64,000 nucleotides of DNA, taken from the NCBI RefSeq assembly GCF_058153355.1, contig NZ_CM177019.1. One strand, written 5' to 3'. Below are positions 3,011 through 64,000 of this stretch, piece after piece; within the stretch, counting starts at the first letter, position 1, and every line of letters begins with the position of its first letter. The notes beneath the pieces were generated by a model, which made no database searches, was not told the origin of the DNA, and saw nothing but the letters and a program-made list of their open reading frames with translations. A program made the translations under genes and the position numbers.

Positions 3011-3787
3011 ATGCTGATTCTTATTTCACCTGCGAAAACGCTCGATTACCAAAGCCCGTTGCCCACCACGCGCTATACGCTGCCGGAGCTGTTAGACAAC
3101 TCCCAGCAGCTGATCCATGAAGCGCGGAAACTGACGCCTCCGCAGATTAGCACCCTGATGCGCATCAGCGACAAACTGGCGGGCATCAACGCCGCTCGCT
3201 TTCATGACTGGCAGCCAGATTTCACGCCAGAGAATGCCCGACAGGCGATTCTGGCATTTAAAGGTGATGTCTATACTGGCTTGCAGGCCGAAACCTTCAG
3301 CGAAGACGATTTTGATTTTGCCCAACAGCATTTGCGAATGCTTTCCGGCTTGTATGGCGTACTGCGCCCGCTCGATTTAATGCAGCCTTATCGTCTGGAA
3401 ATGGGGATCCGTCTTGAGAATGCCCGAGGGAAAGATCTGTATCAATTCTGGGGAGATATCATCACCAACAAGCTGAACGAGGCGCTCGCAGCACAAGGCG
3501 ATAATGTGGTGATTAATTTGGCGTCAGATGAGTATTTTAAATCGGTGAAGCCGAAGAAATTGAATGCCGAGATTATCAAGCCAGTGTTCCTCGATGAGAA
3601 GAACGGCAAATTTAAGATAATCAGCTTCTACGCTAAGAAAGCACGCGGTCTGATGAGTCGTTTCATTATTGAAAATCGGCTGACCAAACCAGAGCAACTG
3701 ACTGGTTTTAATAGCGAAGGTTACTTCTTTGATGAAGCTTCCTCCAGTGATGGGGAACTGGTGTTTAAACGCTACGAGCAGCGTTAA
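3011..3787 (+). CDS. yaaA: Peroxide stress protein YaaA (UPF0246)
   Basis: 258-aa [19 protein letters not shown]...; synteny. Confidence 0.9.
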
Positions 3788-39770: not shown

Positions 39771-41357
39771 TTAATGCTCGCGAGTCTGGTGGAACTGAAC
39801 GTCCGGATAACGTTCCTGCGCCAGGCGCAGGTTGACCATGCTGGTAGCGATGTAAGCGAGGTTATCGCCGCCATCAAGCGCCAGTTGGCTTTCGTTCTTA
39901 CGCTTGAACTCTTCGAATTTCTTCGCGTCCGCACATTCTACCCAGCGTGCAGTGGCAACGTTGACTGACTCATACACTGCTTCAACGTTGTATTCGCTCT
40001 TCAGGCGCGCTACCACCACATCAAACTGCAGCACACCAACCGCACCAACGATCAGGTCGTTGTTGGAGATCGGACGGAACACCTGCACCGCGCCCTCTTC
40101 GGAAAGCTGTACCAGCCCTTTGAGCAGCTGTTTTTGCTTCAGCGGATCTTTCAGGCGGATACGACGGAACAGTTCCGGCGCAAAGTTCGGAATACCGGTG
40201 AACTTCATCATCTCCCCCTGGGTAAAGGTGTCGCCGATCTGAATAGTGCCGTGGTTGTGCAGACCAAGGATGTCGCCCGGATACGCTTCCTCAACATGCG
40301 AACGGTCGCCCGCCATAAAGGTCAGCGCGTCGGAGATCACCACATCTTTCGCGGTGCGCACCTGGCGCAGCTTCATGCCTTTTTCATATTTACCGGATAC
40401 CACGCGCATAAACGCCACGCGGTCGCGGTGTTTCGGGTCCATGTTGGCCTGAATTTTAAATACGAAGCCGGTAAATTTATCTTCGCTCGCCTCTACGGTA
40501 CGGGTATCAGTCTGACGCGGCATCGGCGCAGGTGCCCACTCTACCAGGCCATCCAGCATATGATCGACGCCGAAGTTACCCAGCGCAGTACCAAAGAACA
40601 CTGGAGTAATTTCGCCCGCAAGGAACAATTCTTTGTCGAACTCGTTAGACGCGCCTTTCACCAGTTCCAGTTCGTCACGCAGCTGCTGTGCCAGATCTTC
40701 ACCAACCGCAGCATCGAGATCCGGGTTATTCAGCCCTTTAACAATACGGACTTCCTGAATGGTGTGACCTTTACCGCTCTGATAGAGATAGGTTTCGTCT
40801 TTATAAAGGTGGTAAACGCCTTTAAACAGCTTGCCGCAGCCAATCGGCCAGGTGATCGGCGCACAGCCGATTTTCAGCTCGTTCTCAACTTCATCGAGCA
40901 GCTCCATCGGGTCGCGGATATCACGGTCAAGTTTGTTCATAAAGGTGAGGATCGGCGTGTCGCGCAGACGGGTAACTTCCATCAGCTTGCGGGTACGATC
41001 TTCAACACCTTTTGCGGCGTCGATAACCATCAGGCAGCAGTCCACCGCCGTCAGAGTACGATAGGTATCTTCCGAGAAGTCTTCGTGCCCCGGGGTGTCG
41101 AGCAGGTTAACCAGGCAGTCGTGATACGGAAACTGCATCACAGACGTAGTAATGGAGATCCCACGCTGCTTTTCCATCTCCATCCAGTCCGACTTAGCGT
41201 GCTGGTTGGAACCACGGCCTTTTACTGTACCGGCAGTCTGAATGGCCTGTCCGAACAGCAGCACCTTCTCGGTGATGGTCGTTTTACCGGCGTCCGGGTG
41301 AGAAATAATTGCAAAGGTTCTTCTTTTCGCTACCTCTGCGGCCAAAAGGCTTGTCAT
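39771..41357 (-). CDS. prfC: Peptide chain release factor 3 (N-terminal codons differ from the K-12 form as recalled)
   Basis: ORF 39771..41384; start taken at [27 protein letters not shown] (528 aa), GTPase motifs. Confidence 0.9.
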
Positions 41358-41543
41358 AATTGTTGTCTCTTTGATTATGTACAATCATATGTACAAAGAA
41401 AAATTCATGCCGCTGATTGTACATTTTGGAGGTATCAGAGCATAGCAGAACATGATCAGTAGGTGTATTTGTAGCCAAAGAACATTTGTATATGCAGCAA
41501 TCTTTGCTCTATTGACACTGTTTATTCATACAGTTAAAAATAA

Positions 41544-41563
41544 TACTGTATAAAAACGCAGTA
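41544..41563 (+). promoter_or_regulatory. Candidate LexA (SOS) box upstream of dinI-like gene
   Basis: tactgtataaaaacgcagta fits CTG-N10-CAG, 14 bp upstream of the gagagggg RBS and the ATG. Confidence 0.6.
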
Positions 41564-41577
41564 GAGAGGGGTTTTTT

Positions 41578-41826
41578 ATGCGTATTGAGATCTGCATAGC
41601 CAAAGAGAAAATGACTAAAATGCCAAACGGTGCTGTGGATGCGTTAAAGGAAGAATTAACTCGGCGCATCAGTAAGCGTTATGACGATGTAGAAGTGATC
41701 GTAAAAGCCACCAGCAATGATGGGCTTTCTGTTACACGCACCGCAGATAAGGATTCTGCAAAAACATTTGTTCAGGAGACTCTGAAAGATACCTGGGAGT
41801 CTGCTGACGAGTGGTTTGTTCACTAA
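41578..41826 (+). CDS. DinI-family protein (prophage-encoded)
   Basis: 82-aa [52 protein letters not shown]... Confidence 0.85.
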
Positions 41827-41856
41827 TTAACACGTAAAATCTGTAACGGCTGGAAA

Positions 41857-42063
41857 TCATTCAATACTCGCACTATCGAAAGTTCGCCAGCCAACCGCAG
41901 CACGTTCTTGCATACGACGTGTCTGCGGTTTTATATAATCCCAGCCGGTCCAGTTTCCAGACAACCAGCGTGTCACCTGCCGATAATGTCCTGTCAACGC
42001 ATTACGTTGTAGATCGATTTTCTGGTCATTTGTTGATACGCAAACATAGCCAATAAGCATGGT
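41857..42063 (-). pseudogene. Remnant of a Gin/Pin/Hin-family serine DNA invertase (internal deletion and frameshift)
   Basis: First 22 codons MLIGYVCVSTNDQKIDLQRNAL match invertase N-terminus; downstream DNA encodes DTLVVWKLDRLG only in another frame; too little space for an intact invertase of about 190 aa. Confidence 0.6.
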
Positions 42064-42086
42064 AGCTCCCTCTGACAAAAGCAGGA

Positions 42087-43085
42087 ATGATGCCATTTAC
42101 TCGTTATTTCTGCATTTTCATAAACATTGGTTTACAGGAAGCGGTAAATCAGGCTTCTGGCGCATTACAGAAAAACCAGAACGGTGCAGATATTCCAGGA
42201 AAAGATACCTTCACCAAAAATATTGGTGCCTGTCGCGCATATAGCGCATGGGTGGATATTGGTGGCGATAGTCAGGTCTGGACAACTGCGCAATTTATTT
42301 CGTGGCTGGAGAGTCAGGGAGCATTTAACCATCCTTACTGGATGTGCAAAGGCTCATGGGCTTATGCAAATAATAAGGTCATTACAGATACAGGTTGCGG
42401 AAATATTTGTCTTGCAGGTGCTGTGGTGGAAGTTATTGGCACCCGCGGCGCAATGACCATACGCGTTACCACGCCGGGCACGTCCAGCGGCGGCGGAATC
42501 ACTAACGCTCAATTCACTTATATTAATCATGGTGATGCTTACGCTCCTGGCTGGCGACGAGACTACAACACGAAAAACCAGCAGCCTGCATTTGCTTTAG
42601 GGCAAACAGGAAATACCGTCGGAAACGACAAAGCCGTTGGCTGGAACTGGAATAGCGGGGTCTATAACGCAAATATTGGTGGCGCAACAACATTAATCCT
42701 CCACTTCAATATGAATACGGGGAGTTGCCCTGCCGTACAGTTCCGTGTGAATTACAGGAACGGCGGTATTTTTTATCGTTCAGCGCGTGATGGTTATGGA
42801 TTTGAGGCTGGCTGGTCAGAGTTTTACACCACAACACGCAAGCCATCAGCGAGAGATGTTGGCGCATATACGCAGGCAGAATGTAACTCAAGGTTTATTA
42901 CAGGTATTCGCCTTGGTGGTCTGTCATCTGTTCAGACATGGAATGGTCCCGGCTGGTCTGACAGGTCAGGTTATGTTGTTACCGGTTCCGTTAACTCAAA
43001 CAGAGATGAACTAATTGATACAACTCAGGCAAGGCCAGTTCAGTATTGCATTAATGGGACGTGGTATAACGCGGGGAGTATTTAA
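42087..43085 (+). CDS. Alternative tail-fibre C-terminal segment (Sv'-like), expressed only after segment inversion
   Basis: 332-aa ORF opening inside a gix-like site (…IGLQEAVNQ…) and ending …YCINGTWYNAGSI, parallel to the C-terminus of the 44179..45492 tail fibre (…[12 protein letters not shown]). Confidence 0.7.
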   Translation: MMPFTRYFCIFINIGLQEAVNQASGALQKNQNGADIPGKDTFTKNIGACRAYSAWVDIGGDSQVWTTAQFISWLESQGAFNHPYWMCKGSWAYANNKVITDTGCGNICLAGAVVEVIGTRGAMTIRVTTPGTSSGGGITNAQFTYINHGDAYAPGWRRDYNTKNQQPAFALGQTGNTVGNDKAVGWNWNSGVYNANIGGATTLILHFNMNTGSCPAVQFRVNYRNGGIFYRSARDGYGFEAGWSEFYTTTRKPSARDVGAYTQAECNSRFITGIRLGGLSSVQTWNGPGWSDRSGYVVTGSVNSNRDELIDTTQARPVQYCINGTWYNAGSI

Positions 43086-43087
43086 CG

Positions 43088-43621
43088 ATGATGCACTTAA
43101 AAAACATTTCTGCTGGTAATCCTGAAACAAAAGAGCAATACCAGCTAACAAAGCAATTTAACATCAAATGGCTTTATACAGAGGATGGGAAAAACTGGTA
43201 TGAGGAACAAAAGAACTTTCAGCCTGATACGTTGAAAATGGTCTATGACCACAACGGCGTTATTATTTGTATTGAAAAGGATGTTTCAGCAATTAATCCG
43301 GAAGGCGCAAGCGTCGTTGAGGTTCCTGATATTACAGCAAATCGCCGGGCTGATATTTCAGGTAAATGGATGTTCAAAGATGGCGTAGTGATAAAGCGAA
43401 CTTATACCGGGGAAGAGCAGAGGCAACAAGCGGAAAATGAAAAGCAAAGCCTGCTACAGCTCGTCAGGGATAAAACCCAGCTGTGGGACTCACAGCTACG
43501 GCTGGGCATTATTTCCGACGAGAATAAACAAAAATTAACCGAGTGGATGCTCTATGCGCAGAAGGTCGAATCCACAGACACCTCCAGCCTGCCAGTAACG
43601 TTTCCCGAACAACCAGAATGA
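43088..43621 (+). CDS. Tail fibre assembly protein (U'-like)
   Basis: 177-aa ORF MMHLKNISAGNPETKEQYQLTK..., paralogous to 43650..44177. Confidence 0.8.
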   Translation: MMHLKNISAGNPETKEQYQLTKQFNIKWLYTEDGKNWYEEQKNFQPDTLKMVYDHNGVIICIEKDVSAINPEGASVVEVPDITANRRADISGKWMFKDGVVIKRTYTGEEQRQQAENEKQSLLQLVRDKTQLWDSQLRLGIISDENKQKLTEWMLYAQKVESTDTSSLPVTFPEQPE

Positions 43622-43649
43622 GAGAAGGCCCGATATCGGGCCTTAATTT

Positions 43650-44177
43650 TTACTCAGGTTTTTGTGGCCATTCGGGCTTTGCCGTATCCACACGGCTGAT
43701 CAGAACACTGTAGCGTTCCCATGCTTCCAGTCGTGTGCGTTCCTCGTCTGTTGCCATATTCAGCCTGACAGCGCGTTCCAGCGGCTGGATGACTGATTCA
43801 GCTTCGGAAAGTAACTCGGCCTTTTGTGATTCGGCCTGTTGCTGCTGTTCGTCTGCTGTATAAGTCCTCCTGACCACCGCTCCGTCCTTAAACATCCACT
43901 TCCCTGAATCATCGGCACGACGGTTAGCTGTTATATCGGGGATTTCAACGACGCTAAAACCTTCAGGATTAAGCGTGGAGGCATCTTTAGTGACGGCGAC
44001 AATAATATTATTTTCGTCGTAAACAATCTTTATTGTATCCGGCTGAAAGTTCTTCACTTCCTCATACCAGTTTTTTCCGTCCTCAGAGTAAAGCCAGATA
44101 ACTCCGTGTTTCTTTGTTAACTCATACTGTTCTGGTGTTTTAGCATTACCCGCTTTTATGTTCTTTAAGTGCATCAT
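43650..44177 (-). CDS. Tail fibre assembly protein (U-like)
   Basis: ORF 43650..44210; start taken at [22 protein letters not shown], one base after the tail-fibre stop. Confidence 0.8.
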
Positions 44178-44178
44178 A

Positions 44179-45492
44179 TTAAATACTCGCCACATTATAC
44201 CAGGTGCCATTTATATACTTTTGCACTGGCCTGTAATGAACGCCTGCAATATTATCGGCAGAGTTTTTTCCGGTATCCTGTACGTTAATCCCCGTCAGTA
44301 CATAGCCTGACGGGCACTGGAAATTCCATGTTTGCCAGTTATTCACACCATAATATTGCTGTGAGCCAAGCCGGACATCTTTCACATATCTGGAGTCAAA
44401 ATTGCCATAATTGCCGGGAATAACTTGCGCACCACAAAGCCAGTTACCGTTATTATCCATGTACGCCTGACCATCGGTGCCATTGGCTGTCCTTGAGTTA
44501 TTAATCATGTAGATGCCAAATTGCTTATTCCCCAGCCCACCAATTACGAATTTACGGTCGGTATGGTCCTGGCGAAGCAATGCCTGCGCACCATCGTTGG
44601 ATACCGCATTACGGCCCAGAATAACATTCTGGTCACGCATATGAATCCACATGCCGGTACTACTGTTAATTGCAAAACGGTTTGCAAATATATCCCCTGT
44701 AACATCAAGACCATGCCCCATGCTTATCCGGCCAGTTCTGAGATTAAGCGTAAAGGGGCGTAGTGGCCCTATATCACCATTTTCCCCCTCATTCTCTCGT
44801 GTAGGGATGATATGCAGGCATTCTTCAGAACGACGAAAAATGGCACCAAAAGATGAATTAAATATCCTCAGTGCATTGACTGTCGATATTTTCACTTCAC
44901 TGCTGAAAAGGGCTTTCACAAGAACATACAGAGCATCCCATTTAAGATTCATCAGGTCTTTAACCCGGCCGCCAGTGAGGTGGTGTCTCCATTTGAAATA
45001 TTCATTACCGTTATCCGCCGTTTCAAACCACATGTAGGAATCGGTGTCTGCATCCGAATCATTTTTAAATCCAATCTTCGCCCAGTCAGTATTCCGAATC
45101 CAGGCAAGGATTGAGTCGTTTTCAAAAGTAAGTCCACCGGACAAGGTATCGCCATTTTTTTGCACAGCGTTCCTGGCCCGGTTTACCGTTTCCTGTAAAC
45201 CAAGGTTTTCGAGAGCCGTTTTCACCGTGCCATCCAATTTGATATCGCCAAACGGATTCTTGCGGCTTAACAGCAGCGCGCGAAGTGCGGTAATCAACTG
45301 ATCGTGCTGCCCTTTCTCCAGGCTGGCACCGGATGCCTCCACCACGCTGCAGAGTTCTTCCTGCAACATATCAAAGTAGTCATCATCCAGATCGGTGGCA
45401 GGTGTGCCGGTCTGGGGGTTACCACGGGTAAAACCGTTCTTACCCGCGCCGAACTTATCCTTCTGCGCGGTTTTAGTGTCTATGCGATGCAT
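44179..45492 (-). CDS. Phage tail fibre protein (constant N-terminus plus currently expressed variable C-terminus)
   Basis: 437-aa ORF; codons 94-101 (LENLGLQE) are encoded by a gix-like site; C-terminus …[17 protein letters not shown]. Confidence 0.85.
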
Positions 45493-45495
45493 GGA

Positions 45496-46080
45496 TTACT
45501 CCGGATATTTAAAAATTACGTAGGTATGCGACGGGCAGAGTTTGTTAAGCACACACTCGACAACGGTGTCGCCCCATATACGCAGCGCGGAATCACAGGG
45601 ATCGCCACATGTCATCCAGGTGGTGTTGGTGGTGGCTGGCATGTTGACCTGCCAGTAATACCGCCATTCCAGCGCATTCACCGCGTCAGTACAGGCTGAT
45701 GAGCAGGTGAACGTGCTTTTGTCGTATCGCGTGATGGTGGCATCTGGTCTGCCCAGGGCAGCAAGCTGTGCAAGATAAAAATCCTCGTTGATGCCGCCCG
45801 CCAGGTTAACCTTCGCATCCAGCCGTTGCTGACGCTGGCGAAGGGTCTGCGTTCCCGCCGGAATACATTCATCCGGCAGACCGCACAGACGCTCCCAGCG
45901 GTTTATCAGTTCGGTGGTGGTGCGCGGATCCAGCTCCCGCATCAGGGCATCCGCACGCTGATGAACACGGGTTAATGACGGTGCCGCACCGGCAATCGCC
46001 GGATCGCTGGCTGACCACGCCGGACCGGGCGGCAACAGTGCCGATAACAGGCGGATGTAATCATCGTTTGTCACGTCCAT
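45496..46080 (-). CDS. Phage tail protein (Mu gp48-like)
   Basis: 194-aa ORF directly upstream of the tail fibre in a baseplate operon. Confidence 0.65.
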
Positions 46081-47129
46081 GAAATCGTCCCCAGCACCGC
46101 CAGTTCATTTTTTGCAATGGAGATATTGTCCGCCGGTGCAAGCAATTGATGGCTGTATTCCCCGTTCGCACCGGAAATCGCTTCACTGATACGCGACACC
46201 TTCAGTTCTCCCTGCGGATAACCATCACGCAGCAGGAACGAACGCAACTCCGCAGTAATGGCGGTTCGTATTTCCGGTGTGTCCGGCGTCACGCGGATAT
46301 GAAAATCCACCGTATGTGCCACCGGCCTGAACACATACAAATCAGAGCCTGCCACCGGGGCCAGTGGCCCGATATGTTGTCTTGCCGCCGTTTCCGTTGA
46401 TTCTTCCGGAATGGGATTAATCAGGTCACTGCTGGCAATCATCACACCGACAGTTCCCGTTCCCATCCAGTGACGGTATGTCCATGCGCGGGTAATGCCG
46501 GGCACTTCTTTAGCCCAGACGACATAGTCCCCGTCAGCCCCGCCCTGCGGCGTCCAGTAATACCGCTCAATGACGCGGGCGCGCCACGTTTCCAGCTCTT
46601 CAGTATCAAATCCGCCTGTCAGGGTGTCAGCCACACCGGAAGACGGCAGACCATTCACCGGCGTGACCAGGATTAATGCCGTACCGTCGTCAGCGTTACC
46701 GACCGCGCCTGCATTTGAGCAGGCGATCGGCACGCGCAGGACACCACCGGAGCTGGTTGCATCGGCAGTTGCAGTATACTGAACCAGGTCATCGCGCTGA
46801 ATAACACTCCCGGCGGTCACCTTCAGGCCATCGCTGACACCTTCCCAGCGCATATACCCGCTGGCAGCCGTGGCCCCCTTGCGCGGACACCGTTTCATCG
46901 CAGCATGTCGCGCCAGCCAGGACTCATCGCACAGGTCAGGCAGCATGTTCATTGCCAGATAATCGATGTACCCGTAAACCGTATGCAGCGCCGCCGCATA
47001 CACCTTTGCCCGCACGTCTTCATCCATGCGCCGGAGCGTGTCGCTGACGTCCAGCCTGGCGAATAAATCGTTACGGAGCATACTGATATTTTCTGCCAGC
47101 GTCGGGCGCTGAAATTCACTGTCTGCCAT
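46071..47129 (-). CDS. Baseplate J-like protein (Mu gp47-like)
   Basis: 352-aa ORF; gene order and size match the Mu-type baseplate wedge. Confidence 0.75.
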
Positions 47130-47544
47130 GCGTTATCGCACTCCACAGATCATCAAAAGAAATCATTACCGGTCCGTCACGACGCCAGAGAGTGATACTG
47201 TTACCCAGTTCATTAATCCCGGTGCGGCGGATATCCAGATCAATACGGGACACCACGCCGTCATCAATCATCCATTGCAGGCATTCGCGGATATACCCCC
47301 TTACCGTCTGCACCAGCTGATTGGTCAGTTTGCTGCGCTGAAGCAGCCACAGTCGGGAGCCGTAACGGTCATTCTGTACCGCAGGCCAGGTATCCCCCCA
47401 CCATCCCATCGGGACGTCGGCGTTGTCATCAGGCTCCGCCCGCCGCCAGGTAAACAGGGAAATCACCACGGCGCGGGTCAGCGGATCCAGCGGTGCGCTG
47501 GCGCAGGTGCGTTTACCGTTCACCGTCAGCCACAGTTCCATCAT
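47116..47544 (-). CDS. Baseplate protein (Mu gp46-like)
   Basis: 142-aa ORF; synteny. Confidence 0.65.
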   Translation of the reverse strand: MMELWLTVNGKRTCASAPLDPLTRAVVISLFTWRRAEPDDNADVPMGWWGDTWPAVQNDRYGSRLWLLQRSKLTNQLVQTVRGYIRECLQWMIDDGVVSRIDLDIRRTGINELGNSITLWRRDGPVMISFDDLWSAITHGRQ

Positions 47545-48089
47545 GCCTCCATCGCTTTATCAGGTTTGTCGGTGTTACTGCCCTGACCGTTCTCTCTGTG
47601 ACGATGCCCGTTATAGGCAAGCCGCATCGCTGACATGGTGGTGCCGCCGGAGTCGCACAGGTCTTTCACCTGTCCTGTCACTTCCAGATCCATTTCAAAA
47701 CGTGCTTTAGGTGAATTGCGAAACGTGATCGTTTTACCTGCACCGTCCACCACGATCCCCTCCCGGGTCAGCGTCACGGACTGCCCCTGATCGTCATAGA
47801 CAGCCACCTCACCCGTCTGCAGCCCTTTCAGGCGGTAACGCCGGTCCGACACCGTAACAACCACCGCATGAGAACGGTCACCATCCGGAAACAACACCAC
47901 CGCTTCCGCACCGCTGTTTGCCCTTGCGGTAAAACCGTAAGGTTCAAGATGTTCAACCCCGGCTTTGGGTTCACCGGCAATCAGGGACACATCCACGGTC
48001 TGACATTTCGTGGCGGCACTGATGCTTTTCACCACGGCCCGCCCAATCAGCCCGAGGAGTTGTCGCTGTATGGTTTCAATCGCCCTCAT
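47541..48089 (-). CDS. Baseplate assembly/spike protein (Mu gp45-like)
   Basis: 182-aa ORF; synteny. Confidence 0.65.
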   Translation of the reverse strand: MRAIETIQRQLLGLIGRAVVKSISAATKCQTVDVSLIAGEPKAGVEHLEPYGFTARANSGAEAVVLFPDGDRSHAVVVTVSDRRYRLKGLQTGEVAVYDDQGQSVTLTREGIVVDGAGKTITFRNSPKARFEMDLEVTGQVKDLCDSGGTTMSAMRLAYNGHRHRENGQGSNTDKPDKAMEA

Positions 48090-58615: not shown

Positions 58616-59846
58616 TTTTTGGGGGCTTAAAATCTCCTGCCGGGTTAGCAGCATTCACGCTTACCAGCATCTCATCCAGCCCTTCAACCGGATTCATATC
58701 CTCGAATGCGCGGGCCTCATTACGGCTCATCCATCCATCGGTAATAGCGAAGTGATAGAATTGCGCGCGCTCCTGCGGAGTTCCGCGTAAAAGCCCCGTC
58801 AGATTGAACCTGACGTAATACCCGGCGGCTAACTCAGCGCGGGTAAACAAGCGACGGTTAAGCTCCTGCTCCCAGTTCGTCACCCACGGCATCATCGTGT
58901 AGCGGACAAACTGAATCGCCTGCGCAGAAATATTGGAGAAGGTGGCTTTTTCGAGGTCATTAATCATGTGCGCAGGAATATTGAAAATACCGGCAATCAT
59001 TGAACGGTTCAGTTTCATCATGTCAATGATCTGAGCGTCAACTGGCGACACAGTCAGTGCCTTGTAATCCAGATCGGCTGGCAACAGCATGGTTTTGTTT
59101 TCCTGGCTGCGTAACGCCTGCGATGCCTTCTGCCACTGATCTTTAAGCCAGCCCCAGCTGTCCTTATTGAGTCCGCTTTTAACGGATACTATCCCCGCCG
59201 GACGGGCATTACCGCTGAAGAAGCTTTCTGTGTATTTCTGACCGCTCATCCCCATGCCTATTGTTTCGGCATGTTGCATAATCGGACTCAGCCCCATCTT
59301 CTGATTATTACCCAGCGCACGAATGTGGATCATATCGTCGGGGCTGATCGCAAACGCCCCATATTCGTTGTACAAACCGTAGGTGTATCGGCCACCAGTA
59401 TTCATCAGCGTCGTTTCCCACGGCATACAGCAATCCAGGGATATGACTTCACCGCGACGATTACGTTTCACCCAGGTATACCCATTCCCCCAGCCAAGGA
59501 TGTGACGTTGCTTCAGTTCGCGCCATTTGTAACTGGTTTGCCAGGTATTGGGCTCATCATGAACCAGATAAAACGCCGGATGATCGCGTGCGGGCTCAAC
59601 CTTCCCATTGTGCCTGCGCATAACATGCAACGGCATCTGGGCAAGGCTGGAAGACAGGACATAGATACAGGAATACACCGCAGCCAGTTTCATCGCAGTT
59701 TCAGGACTGACATAAACGTCTGCCCGGAACAGCCCATCAGTATCAACGGCATCCCCGGTTATCGGGGTGGAAGGATTCTCCAGTGCTTTACTTCTGAACA
59801 GAGCATCAAGCAGCACGCGTCCCCCTTCTGGCCATAGCCAGTGCAC
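58590..59846 (-). CDS. Portal protein (HK97-family)
   Basis: 418-aa ORF between terminase and protease. Confidence 0.85.
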   Translation of the reverse strand: MHWLWPEGGRVLLDALFRSKALENPSTPITGDAVDTDGLFRADVYVSPETAMKLAAVYSCIYVLSSSLAQMPLHVMRRHNGKVEPARDHPAFYLVHDEPNTWQTSYKWRELKQRHILGWGNGYTWVKRNRRGEVISLDCCMPWETTLMNTGGRYTYGLYNEYGAFAISPDDMIHIRALGNNQKMGLSPIMQHAETIGMGMSGQKYTESFFSGNARPAGIVSVKSGLNKDSWGWLKDQWQKASQALRSQENKTMLLPADLDYKALTVSPVDAQIIDMMKLNRSMIAGIFNIPAHMINDLEKATFSNISAQAIQFVRYTMMPWVTNWEQELNRRLFTRAELAAGYYVRFNLTGLLRGTPQERAQFYHFAITDGWMSRNEARAFEDMNPVEGLDEMLVSVNAANPAGDFKPPKNDEGKTNE

Positions 59847-59963
59847 CCACCAGCAGTAAACCGCCGGACAGCATCAGAGCCGGAGCCATACCAAACTGCA
59901 GGTAAAACCCGCACGCAAGCAGGCCAAAACCAGCCAGCCCGATAACATCAGCAATTAGTGATT

Positions 59964-61697
59964 TCATAGAATTAAGAGAGCATCGTCCGGATCAAGAGAT
60001 GAGAGGAAATCGTCGGGTTCTTTGAGCATTGCCCGACCGATCGCCATAATCAGTGCAACCGCACCATCGATTTTGTTTTCCGCCTGCTCCTTGACAGGCT
60101 TCACCACATCATCGTTACCCGGAATAGTTTTGCCGACCACGTTGCCGATACACCAGGTCATGATGGGATTGCCGTCATGATGAAAGCGCCCCGATTCAAT
60201 CGCCGCTTCCAGCTCTTTCATCGGATCGGACATGTTGGTGTAGTTCTGAATGATGGTGATGGGGTTCAGGTCTTCATCAGCAAGGTCATGCGACAGCCCG
60301 GTCGCCCCGAAGGGGTCGATGGGTGACTCACTGACCGGGCTGATTTTGTTCGCCGCTTTGGCCTCCTCGAGGATGTAGCGATAATCCACCTCCGCACCAG
60401 CGGTAACAGTCAGAACGCCCATTTCCACCCATTTCTGAAAGCGTTCGGCTGTCCGGCGATCTTCATTTTTCTCGACGCTGTACACCGTGTCATACGGTAC
60501 CCAGAAACGCGGAGCCACACTGTAGTAATGCGTTTTACCGTCAATCTCGCGGGTATAAAGTCGCGCCATGCTGTTCATATCCAGCTTACGCGCCAGGTCA
60601 AAGGCCAGAATGCACGGCTGCCCCTCGAACTGCTCAAGGGACAGTGATTTATCCTCGCAGCTCTGCCAGCTCACCAGGTTGAAATACGCCGAACGCGCCG
60701 ACACCCAGATATTGAGGTGTTTTGTTTTAAAGACGTTTGCCAGACGGGCGTTATTTTTCGCACGCTGCTGCTGACTTAACAAAAATTCGCGATAAACCGA
60801 CACGCCAATATTCGGGTTAGCTTTTTCCAGCACCTGCGGGTCGGTCCAGTCATCGCCTTCGTCAACGGTATAGATGATCCCGAACAATTCATCGTTGGGT
60901 ACCGACCCGTTGAGCATCTCGATAACTTCCCGCCGCTTGTCGTAGCACGGCCCCTCAATGTTGTACCCGGCGGTGGTGATGGCCCACATCAGTGGCTGAC
61001 GTCGCGCCCCCATCCCGGTAAGCATCGTGGTATAAAGCGCATCGGTGGCGTGCTCGTGATATTCATCCACGACGGCACAGTGGGGTGATGAACCATCACC
61101 GGGGTTACCGATCAGCGGTTCAAACCGCGCGCCATCCTCCGGACGGTTCATGTTTGAGGCGTTAACCTCAATCCCGAACGCTTCCGTCAGCATGGGTGTG
61201 CGTTTACACATCAGTCGAGCCGGGCGAAAGACTTCCCACGCCTGTTTCTCTGTCGTGGCACCGGAATACACTTCCGCGCCAAACTCGTTATCACAGGCAA
61301 AACAATACAGGGCAACACCGGCAGAGATTGCCGATTTGCCGTTCTTACGGGGGATTTCGGTATACACCTCCCTGAAGCGGCGCAGCCGGGAGCCTTTATT
61401 GACCCAGCCAAACGCACAGCAGATCACAAAGAGCTGCCACGGTTCCAGCGTGATGGGCATCCTCTTGAATGCCCACTCCCCCTTGGTGTGTGGCAACAGC
61501 TGAATAAATTTCGCGGCCCGTTCAGCCAGGTCCTTGTCGAAGCGGTAACGAAACGACTTACTTTTTTCCGCCATCAGGTCATCAAGATGGCGCTGGCAGG
61601 CCTGAATCACAAACTGGCAGGCCACAATCTTTCCGCGCACGACATCACGGGCATACTGATTGGCAGCATTTACGTTGGGGTAAGATTTCCGGCTCAT
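59964..61697 (-). CDS. Terminase large subunit
   Basis: 577-aa ORF with ATPase and nuclease regions. Confidence 0.9.
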
Positions 61698-62197
61698 GAT
61701 TCGATGATTTTCAGAAACGGGTTAGTGGCTTTCTTCTGCCCCGCCAGGCCAATCAGACGCTGGCGGCTGCTGGGGTCGAGTCCGAGCATTGCCCCCGTGC
61801 TGCTCATCTCGGACTCCTGTTCTTTTTTGGCTGTCAGCTCCGGATTTTTGACCCTGCCGCCCATTGCGCCGGTGATGGTGTTGCCCTGTATGGCAATATT
61901 TTTCACGGCACGTCGCCAGAACTCATAGGCCACGCACCACCGCTCAAGCACCGCGAGGTCAGTCACGCACAGCAGGCCCTGACCGCAGAGTTCTTTGGTT
62001 GTCAGTTGCCACATGATCGTGGCGAGAGTGAGATCTTCTTCAGCGAACCACTCCGGTGGCTCAACACCTTTGATGGGCGTAAAAACAGGTTCATCTTTGT
62101 TCAGGGCTCGCTTGCCGGGGTTTCCGGCCAGCGCCTTGCGCGCCGTTGGCTTGGGGCGACGCCCGGAACGCCCCGCCGTTCCAGCCATATGCGGCAC
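61694..62197 (-). CDS. Terminase small subunit (P27-family-like)
   Basis: 167-aa ORF overlapping the terminase large start. Confidence 0.8.
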
Positions 62198-62313
62198 TCC
62201 TGGTTAAATTTCATTTTTCGCGGGTATAAAAAAACGATGGGGCGGGCAGTCCGGAAGACGTCAGGTCACAGAGATTTGACCCGCCCCTCCCCTCAGACAG
62301 TTGAGAATTATTA
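62198..62313. other. Candidate cos / packaging-initiation region
   Basis: Intergenic between the HNH gene and terminase small subunit; GC-rich inverted motifs ggggcgggcag and gacccgcccctcccc. Confidence 0.3.
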
Positions 62314-62664
62314 TCACTTAAGTCGTTCACGGGCCGTCTTCGCCTTATGACACGGCCAGCACAGACTCTGCAGATTACAGTCGGCATCAGTGCCGCCATG
62401 CGCTTTAGGGATGATGTGGTCAACGGTTTTCGCCTCACGCACCACACCAGCACGCAGACATAACTGACACAGGCCTTTGTCACGCTTCAGGACACGCGCG
62501 CGGATACTGTCCCACTTCGAACCATAGCCGCGCTGATGACGGGACTGACCTGGCTTGTATTGCTTCCAGCCTTCACTTTTGTGGCTTTCGCAATAGCCTG
62601 ACGGGTCAGTGGTTGTAGAGCTGCAGCCGCGAATACGGCAGGCCTTTGGGATTCGTGGTGGCAT
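62314..62664 (-). CDS. HNH endonuclease (packaging-associated)
   Basis: 116-aa ORF with Cys pairs (C..C ... C..C) and His-Asn-His signature, immediately upstream of terminase. Confidence 0.85.
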   Translation of the reverse strand: MPPRIPKACRIRGCSSTTTDPSGYCESHKSEGWKQYKPGQSRHQRGYGSKWDSIRARVLKRDKGLCQLCLRAGVVREAKTVDHIIPKAHGGTDADCNLQSLCWPCHKAKTARERLK

Positions 62665-62689
62665 TTATCAATCTCCACTCAATTCCTTT

Positions 62690-63214
62690 CTACTTCGTCA
62701 TCATTTTACTAAGTTCCTGAGGAGTCAATTCCCATGTAATAAACCGAGAAGACTCCAAAACATCATCTTCTCCGAGCAAGTATTTACGTATATTCTTCAT
62801 GAAGACCCTATAATCTGGGGCATCATTCTTGTGCGACAGAATTTTAGACAATTCCGTTGCTAGATCAGCTGGTAACCATAAAAAAGCCTCATTTGTTAAT
62901 TGTCTTAATCTTTTTCTGTCATAGGGATTTGTCATCCATTCAGACATAAGCTCGGCAATTAATGCCGACTTCATTCTTATCTCATGTTGCCTTTTTTGCT
63001 TATCCAGAATAACAGTGTTTGCTGTTTTTATTGTTTCAAGCATAACATCGTATTCATGCTTGACTGCATTCTGCACAGTGCTTTGTAGCCAAGTTCTCCC
63101 AATAAAAAACATTAAAGGGAGTATTACAACCCAAGCGATTACATTTGCTATCCAACCAGCGTCCATATCTATCCTCATGAAAATAAAAATGATTAACACA
63201 CAAGCTGTTAGCAT
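62690..63214 (-). CDS. Hypothetical membrane-anchored protein (prophage moron candidate)
   Basis: 174-aa ORF with two N-terminal hydrophobic helices, AT-rich coding sequence, wedged between lysis cassette and HNH/terminase. Confidence 0.5.
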   Translation of the reverse strand: MLTACVLIIFIFMRIDMDAGWIANVIAWVVILPLMFFIGRTWLQSTVQNAVKHEYDVMLETIKTANTVILDKQKRQHEIRMKSALIAELMSEWMTNPYDRKRLRQLTNEAFLWLPADLATELSKILSHKNDAPDYRVFMKNIRKYLLGEDDVLESSRFITWELTPQELSKMMTK

Positions 63215-63225
63215 ATAACATTATT

Positions 63226-63483
63226 TCAATGATTACTTCTTTTGCTTTCTATTTTGCGGATTGCAACTTTATCTTGATTACATTGATTTAATGCTGATAA
63301 CAAATTCACATTCAAATCAAGACTTGCACCATACGTCAGTGGGTTGGGTATAAACGGTACAGGAGTATCAGAAGTCAAGCTGACTGGTAGTGGTGTCTTC
63401 GGAATGCTCACGTAAACTGTTCGCGTACTTCCGCAACCTGTCAGCAGCGGCAGCAGGTACAGGACGGGCAGCACAATCATCAT
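63226..63483 (-). CDS. o-spanin (Rz1-like outer-membrane lipoprotein)
   Basis: +1-frame ORF overlapping the end of Rz; MMIVLPVLYLLPLLTGC lipobox, proline-rich mature region. Confidence 0.6.
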   Translation of the reverse strand: MMIVLPVLYLLPLLTGCGSTRTVYVSIPKTPLPVSLTSDTPVPFIPNPLTYGASLDLNVNLLSALNQCNQDKVAIRKIESKRSNH

Positions 63484-63760
63484 CCGCAACAGCCACTTTA
63501 ATATCTTCCTGGGTTCTCTGTGACTCCAGTGCGATCTGCTGTTTTGCATGCTGGTTAGCCTCCAGAACTGTATTGACGATTTGCATTGATTGCAGGACGT
63601 TATTGGTAATGGCAGTTGCTGATTCAGCATTTTGTACAGCCTCATCAGCACGTTTCTTTTCGTACTGATATTTGCTGTAGTAGTAGTTGGCTGACCAGAT
63701 GAAAGAACCAATGGCAGTAACGAAAAAAGCAGCGATAATCAGCTTATAACTCAACTTCAT
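63368..63760 (-). CDS. i-spanin (Rz-like)
   Basis: 130-aa ORF with N-terminal TM helix and coiled-coil region, immediately downstream of endolysin. Confidence 0.7.
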   Translation of the reverse strand: MKLSYKLIIAAFFVTAIGSFIWSANYYYSKYQYEKKRADEAVQNAESATAITNNVLQSMQIVNTVLEANQHAKQQIALESQRTQEDIKVAVADDDCAARPVPAAAADRLRKYANSLREHSEDTTTSQLDF

Positions 63761-64000
63761 TTACCACCCCACCAGCCTCTTTAAATCGGGCAATCAGGTC
63801 ACCGATTTTATGTTCATACTGACCGTAACCTGCGCCCGGCAGTGAAGCCCAGATATTGCTGCAACGATCGATAGCCTGACGGATATCACCGCGATCAATC
63901 ATCGGTAAAGCGCCACGCTCTTTAATCTGCTGCAATGCCACTGCGTCCTGGCTTTTGGGGGAGAAGTCTTTCAGACCAAGCTGTTTACGGTAAGCATCCC
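63744..64000 (-). CDS. Endolysin, lambda R-like lytic transglycosylase (C-terminal part; gene runs off window end)
   Basis: C-terminus …RCSNIWASLPGAGYGQYEHKIGDLIARFKEAGGVVNEVEL resembles lambda R; reading frame open to the window edge. Confidence 0.7.
   Translation of the reverse strand, partial: DAYRKQLGLKDFSPKSQDAVALQQIKERGALPMIDRGDIRQAIDRCSNIWASLPGAGYGQYEHKIGDLIARFKEAGGVVNEVEL

Follow-up and report, generated by a model that had tools for sequence, protein, structure and literature searches.

A prophage that begins within the analyzed stretch of Escherichia coli DNA (hereafter the window, 64,000 nucleotides, to which all coordinates refer unless stated otherwise) has very probably used an attachment (att) module of the cdtI/SXT clade to integrate at a 14-bp core inside prfC and has restored RF3 with a surrogate start of its own. 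The parts of this explanation that are established by direct comparison are the anatomy of the att sites, the restoration of the reading frame, the identity of the protein, the phage origin of the DNA from position 41310 onwards and the prevalence of the arrangement. In the proposed course of events, a temperate phage with a tyrosine-integrase module of the cdtI/SXT clade would have integrated site-specifically at the prfC core ATTATTTCTCACCC, and the surrogate carried by its attP just upstream of the core (AAGAG, ATG and 15 codons) would have left an in-frame RF3 of 528 aa. The native promoter, ribosome-binding site (RBS) and first 22 codons would have moved to the opposite prophage end, beside int, as a 24-codon stub, and prfC transcripts would originate at a weak promoter inside the P arm (220 bp) or enter by read-through from phage genes located farther upstream. 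A prfC start rebuilt by a prophage is already known (from Stx and Cdt phages and from SXT elements); new here are the exact core with its window coordinates, a surrogate that reaches 27 nt past the visible amino acid change, the layout of the arm-type repeats, a prevalence figure and a negative promoter result.

The features on which the argument depends are the following:

39771..41357, minus strand: hybrid prfC open reading frame (528 aa), with its ATG at 41357
41296..41309, minus strand: 14-bp attachment core ATTATTTCTCACCC, the crossover region according to the four-way att comparison
41310..41357, minus strand: surrogate 5' coding segment of prfC (ATG and 15 codons), continuous with phage DNA in free phages
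41358..41577: phage intergenic region between prfC and dinI (P arm of attP), 96-98% identical to phage attP regions
41578..41826, plus strand: phage dinI-like gene divergent from prfC (PHROG 189 DinI, E=4e-31)
41310..64000: the prophage as far as it lies inside the window, with its integrase gene and far att site beyond the window end

Results

Crossover Point Within prfC

The integrase gene and the far att site are missing from the window because it ends inside the prophage. The far site was accordingly taken from strain JNU, with a junction 99% (99.1%) identical, as the window ends before the far end of its own prophage. The core ATTATTTCTCACCC is identical in all four compared sites, i.e., the attB of K-12 (in the order host-left, core, host-right), the attP of phage cdtI (phage-left, core, phage-right), the window junction (phage-left, core at 41296-41309, host-right) and the far junction of JNU (host-left, core, phage-right). 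The two junctions are reciprocal, and attB, attP, attL and attR recombine perfectly on paper. Since the core is also found only once in the 64-kb window, a merely chance likeness was dismissed. It encodes I-I-S-H-P (with 2 nt of the last codon), the start of the GTPase G1/P-loop motif, and occupies codons 17-21 of the window PrfC and codons 18-22 of the K-12 protein; a 14-bp "duplication due to insertion" is annotated at the same place in records of Stx2c/Stx1a phages. With this core, prophages at the prfC site (Stx, Cdt and others) can be recognized, and their ends defined, by an exact sequence.

In the nucleotide alignment, perfect identity of the host part to K-12 begins only at the core, and everything from 41310 rightward is phage DNA. 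A megablast search of 5,426 complete E. coli genomes found that unoccupied prfC loci align only to ~41337 and that 642 genomes align across both prfC and dinI. The phages cdtI, 2H10, PhiR63_1 and Ayreon align from inside prfC (41296/41300) through dinI at 94-98% identity, and in their free form all four carry the surrogate segment uninterrupted, beside the integrase gene. The crossover is located ~30-45 nt deeper in prfC than the point at which the amino acid sequences diverge.

[quoted passage not shown] Both of the comparisons that it had recommended were informative: alignment to an unoccupied prfC locus placed the crossover at the 14-bp core, and the other prophage end, with the same 14-bp core as direct repeat, was located in JNU. 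Its position for the junction (41330-41580) has to be corrected, since the core falls just outside this interval, and so does its assumption that host and phage DNA meet exactly at the amino acid divergence, given that the subsequent EVAKRRTFA codons are still of phage type and the switch occurs at the core.

A different reading, in which the variant N-terminus belongs to a prfC allele or recombinant unconnected with the prophage and the latter stops upstream of the gene, has practically no chance of being correct. A superficial likeness of the two N-termini is all that speaks for it, while the variant 5' segment is continuous with phage DNA in free phage genomes, the native 5' end persists at the opposite prophage junction, and the prophage adjoins the variant 5' end in every genome inspected; at the level of sequence, the four-way att comparison has already refuted it.

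Far Junction and the Displaced Native Start

In JNU, the far end of the prophage holds yjjG, the native promoter candidate TTGCCT-16-TAAAAT, the native RBS and the first 22 codons of prfC, and the native prfC 5' end now persists at this junction as a 24-codon stub. The far end of the prophage in the strain analyzed here would correspondingly read yjjG, native promoter, 22 prfC codons, ATTATTTCTCACCC, CAATAATTAAG..., int. The genes yjjG, rimI and holD, previously recorded as absent, are present beyond the far prophage end in the near-identical JNU prophage, i.e., they are displaced, not deleted.

The int gene is located ~230 bp past the prfC stub and core on the same strand in JNU (and likewise ~230 bp from the core in cdtI), and no terminator-like site was found between the stub and int in JNU. 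With the promoter candidate aimed at int and a terminator-like site absent in between, host transcription may read into int in lysogens. In the JNU locus (L003, 17457-17842, minus strand), the strong native promoter candidate and the stub point straight into the integrase gene.

The Rebuilt RF3

The translations agree with the earlier remark that PrfC starts differently here and that the K-12 protein is one residue longer (528 aa in the window vs. 529 aa in K-12 MG1655, the latter from NC_000913.3). In the comparison of the two translations, residues 3-8 of the K-12 protein are changed from LSPYLQ to SLLAA in the window with no other protein difference, and from residue 8 on the two proteins are identical (521/521). 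Residues 1-16 of the window PrfC are phage-encoded and the remainder is encoded by the host. Over the EVAKRRTFA codons, the window and K-12 differ at 8 positions in 27 nt, of which 8 are synonymous and 0 non-synonymous (window/K-12: GTA/GTG, AAA/AAG, AGA AGA/CGC CGC, ACC/ACT, GCA/GCC). This purely synonymous divergence (8/8) argues that the surrogate is derived from, or has been maintained as, real RF3-coding sequence.

The codon exchanges include tandem rare arginine codons, AGA AGA, at 41319-41324 (minus strand), where K-12 uses CGC CGC, and the surrogate segment is a little AT-richer (48% GC vs. 53%). At the AAEV positions, the phage-supplied N-terminus (41310-41357) is nearer to the native RF3 of Pseudomonas (loci L010/L011, ~3250-3330) than to the RF3 of E. 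coli. There are hints in the sequence that the surrogate may have been captured from, or may have converged on, another prfC lineage.

Control Region Between prfC and dinI

The dinI-like gene (41578..41826) starts exactly 220 nt from the prfC ATG, in agreement with the distance given previously, and its counterparts in related genomes and phages carry a DinI-like annotation. The intervening P arm contains the following putative signals:

41367..41371, minus strand: AAGAG, a Shine-Dalgarno-like element 9 nt before the surrogate ATG (by sequence reading; function putative)
41374..41402, minus strand: TTTTCT-17-CATAAT, the best sigma-70-like candidate, weak, overlapping the arm-type repeats
41378-41383, 41390-41395 and 41418-41423, minus strand: three TGTACA repeats, proposed arm-type integrase sites (from the repeat count)
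41512..41561, plus strand: dinI promoter-like site TTGACA-18-AAAAAT, overlapped by two LexA-box-like sites
41518-41533: LexA-box-like site with exact CTGT-N8-ACAG, the only exact copy in the window
41546-41561: LexA-box-like site with 1 mismatch, overlapping the dinI promoter-like site

The layout of the LexA boxes would fit an SOS-controlled dinI. With regard to the TGTACA repeats, 3 of the 7 copies in the 64-kb window cluster within 46 bp (41378-41423). The attP of cdtI has 4 TGTACA copies either side of the core, as well as a 35-nt imperfect repeat common to both of its arms. The JNU/cdtI-type integrase, encoded beyond the window, combines the domains PF13356, PF22022 and PF00589, with PF13356 being arm-binding. 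In view of this repeat layout and of an integrase with an arm-binding domain, the TGTACA repeats are most simply predicted to be arm-type Int sites.

Transcription and Translation of the Hybrid Gene

The native prfC promoter has certainly been removed from the hybrid gene and, with the native promoter, RBS and first codons left at the far junction, any transcription of prfC must begin in phage DNA. A consensus promoter scan of 41250-42150 found no promoter on the minus (prfC) strand. In the PWM scan, the best score on this strand is 6.33, which equals the background median; among random 300-nt blocks taken from the window, 41% reach it. The native K-12 candidate TTGCCT-16-TAAAAT, by contrast, attains 11.0 and exceeds the 95th percentile of the background (9.18). 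Neither scan gives a sigma-70 match above background for the prfC strand of the 220-bp phage region. Of the two contributions ascribed to the phage by the first-pass annotation, the N-terminal codons are confirmed, and the promoter is not matched by any above-background sigma-70 sequence, although the native promoter is indeed removed. That the phage would supply a promoter is an argument from necessity and from the analogy with SXT, not from a signal visible in the sequence. A comparative search for regulatory elements yielded no usable variation, as copies of the module in 689 genomes share at least 99% identity and those in phages 96-98%.

We also considered the int promoter of attP as a potential prfC promoter after integration and rejected it, as the best candidates on the int strand (PWM scores of 8.15 and 7.15) map to the stretch separating the core from int, and integration probably leaves int with its own promoter.

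The leader of the hybrid gene (41350-41381, minus strand) is predicted to fold into a hairpin in which CAUAAU, part of an arm-type repeat, pairs with AUUAUG, which contains the start codon. The hairpin is marginal, with a minimum free energy of -12.2 kcal/mol, z = -2.4 and 9/200 shuffles folding equally well, and it matters only if transcription begins upstream of 41381. Together with the tandem AGA codons, a hairpin over the start codon could make the expression of hybrid prfC lower than that of the native gene.

The lack of an above-background promoter on the prfC strand, against the strong native candidate of K-12, and a possible reduction of expression by the start-codon hairpin and the rare AGA codons are also what a silencing of prfC would predict. 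Integration would then abolish or strongly lower prfC expression, the ORF would be restored only cosmetically, and lysogens would be RF3 hypomorphs. Such a state should be tolerable since prfC is non-essential (Ogura et al. note that it is off the essential-gene list; PMC2323221). Also in favor of silencing, prfC is counted by Bobay et al. among prophage-"disrupted" genes, and in the analogous dusA case the promoter of the element gives lower-than-native expression. Nevertheless, we consider silencing unlikely. The host part of prfC has not decayed (521/521 vs. K-12) and is annotated as intact among the matches listed, the surrogate keeps 9/9 conserved residues via synonymous-only differences, the module is at least 99% conserved over 689 genomes and shared by several phage backbones, and a working promoter has been reported for SXT at this site. 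The undecayed host part, the synonymous-only surrogate and the extreme conservation of the module are all expected if a functional RF3 matters, and from these we infer that the hybrid RF3 is functional and that expression of hybrid prfC, perhaps reduced, originates in phage DNA.

As for the source of the transcripts, most of them might enter prfC by read-through from phage genes located upstream on the same strand rather than start at a promoter dedicated to prfC within the attP arm. No terminator-like site was found in 41250-42150, the prfC strand also encodes the pin remnant (41857-42096) and late tail genes, and the cdtABC genes of phage cdtI are aimed at the same junction, all of which would be compatible with such read-through. 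We nonetheless regard it as improbable for the main source, because late operons are repressed in a lysogen, the transcript would have to cross dinI in antisense, and the att module is constant despite varying upstream cargo (cdt genes, pin, others), which favors a signal inside the module.

More speculatively, the integration could have rewired both partners, with RF3 tracking the state of the prophage (via Int/Xis occupancy and SOS) and the native prfC promoter driving int from the far end. RF3 would in this case depend on a weak phage promoter and leader that are embedded in the arm-type sites, 140-200 bp from the two LexA boxes. The idea appears rather far-fetched at present; if it were true, ~13% of E. 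coli strains would have a prophage-tuned quality control of translation termination. A systematic change in the level or in the N-terminus of RF3 could matter for termination fidelity, and nothing in the present analysis indicates such an effect.

Prevalence of the Module and Relatives of Its Integrase

Of the 5,426 complete E. coli genomes, 699 (12.9%, about 13%) have the phage-type 5' end of prfC (41310-41440), and 689 of these 699 carriers have it at an identity of at least 99%. JNU and the O145:H28 strain RM12761 are among the carriers. The strength of hybrid prfC expression, a biological question raised in 2007, consequently concerns ~13% of complete E. coli genomes. Among the matches listed, the hybrid prfC is annotated as intact in all except one error-ridden assembly. 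The sole divergent copy of the module (87.8% identity) belongs to strain SCU-306 (L013), contains many small indels and has prfC and dinI flagged as partial or frameshifted; most likely it is an artefact of long-read assembly and no real variant.

One and the same att module is found on several phage backbones, including lambdoid Cdt and Stx phages, Ayreon and the contractile-tailed prophage of the window. Relatives of the integrase with ~50% identity, in Shewanella and Pseudomonas, immediately follow native prfC stubs that break off at the IISHP(D) codons. As these stubs are cut at the same codons, the integrase clade, judging from sequence, targets the conserved P-loop-coding sequence across genera. 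Not every member of the clade targets prfC, since a relative in Vibrio astriarenae (51% identity) has no prfC stub alongside. In Vibrio astriarenae (L006, 3184-3285), the integrase gene comes just after a 33-codon stub, MSNEYIPPKVWTADSENGGTWASINRPYTGAIL with its stop codon, which we take to resemble the start of a YghU-like glutathione transferase. If this reading holds, the stub suggests that the clade may have more than one 5'-end target.

Relation to Known Integrations

[quoted passage not shown] The integrases of the cdtI type and of SXT fall into one IntSXT cluster of enzymes inserting at prfC (PMC8138268). [quoted passage not shown] With virion genes present and the conjugation backbone absent, its gene content identifies it as a phage with a known prfC att module, not an SXT/R391 ICE. 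The SXT core, of 17 bp, would lie over the same prfC codons.

Among phages, exactly such an insertion into prfC was described for an Stx1 phage by Ogura et al. in 2007 (PMC2323221), who noted a short altered N-terminus of RF-3 and the loss of the authentic RBS and promoter, and who left open whether prfC is transcribed and translated. Further examples include the Cdt-I converting phage cdtI (Asakura et al., 2007; NC_009514) and the Stx1a and Stx2c phages catalogued at prfC in CC119 (PMC10132054). The window prophage shares with the Stx and cdtI prfC phages the 14-bp core, the surrogate segment and P arm (96-98% identical) and the dinI neighbor. To judge from its genes, it differs in having a contractile tail (sheath, baseplate and Mu-like tail genes), a head of the HK97 type and an invertible segment for tail fibres, whereas the descriptions of cdtI and the CC119 Stx phages are of a lambdoid, long-tailed type that carries toxin genes. 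No toxin genes were found next to the window junction.

The elements targeting dusA (Farrugia et al., 2015; IMEVchUSA3, bioRxiv 10.1101/2021.06.18.448947) follow the same 5'-end logic, i.e., the ORF is restored with an altered N-terminus and a new, weaker promoter. They differ from the prfC case in the target gene and in the family of the integrase. In classical 3'-end integrations (into tRNA genes, or into icd by e14 or phage 21), the gene is preserved because attP brings along a copy of its end. Such integrations leave the promoter and RBS untouched, whereas in the prfC case the 5' end is replaced together with the start signals of transcription and translation. A 3' end duplication at integration hotspots has been described by Bobay et al., in whose survey prfC is listed as disrupted; for the purposes of annotation, this listing should be corrected, as the hotspot gene prfC is rebuilt, not disrupted.

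Prophage Body and Left Flank

To the left of the junction, the flanking DNA belongs to the ordinary E. coli chromosome, and practically every E. coli genome matches it at 95-99% identity. A host other than E. coli, considered because of a 95% match, was rejected, as the low identity is due to differences clustered in the surrogate segment. The prophage genes within the window comprise a truncated invertase gene and genes for tail fibres, baseplate, tape measure, sheath, an HK97-type head, terminase and spanin, with the large terminase and the major head protein among the products. An Rfam scan of 40900-42300 returned only a sub-threshold match to CssrB (22.9 bits vs. a gathering score of 76, E=0.04), which, being far under the gathering score, was taken as a chance match; it is located inside the invertase remnant, at 41896-41956 (minus strand).

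The prophage also has an invertible tail-fibre segment of roughly 3 kb, with two alternative sets of a tail-fibre C-terminus and an assembly gene:

41857-42096, minus strand: remnant of the invertase gene (pin), truncated
42087-43621, plus strand, and 43650-45492, minus strand: the alternative tail-fibre sets, in opposite orientation
42122-42175 and 45155-45208: 54-nt inverted repeats bounding the invertible segment, with the pix/gix-like site TTCCTGTAAACCAAGG

Only the first ~25-30 residues of the pin remnant match DNA invertases and, with the invertase ORF truncated in this way, the tail-fibre segment can probably no longer leave its present orientation.
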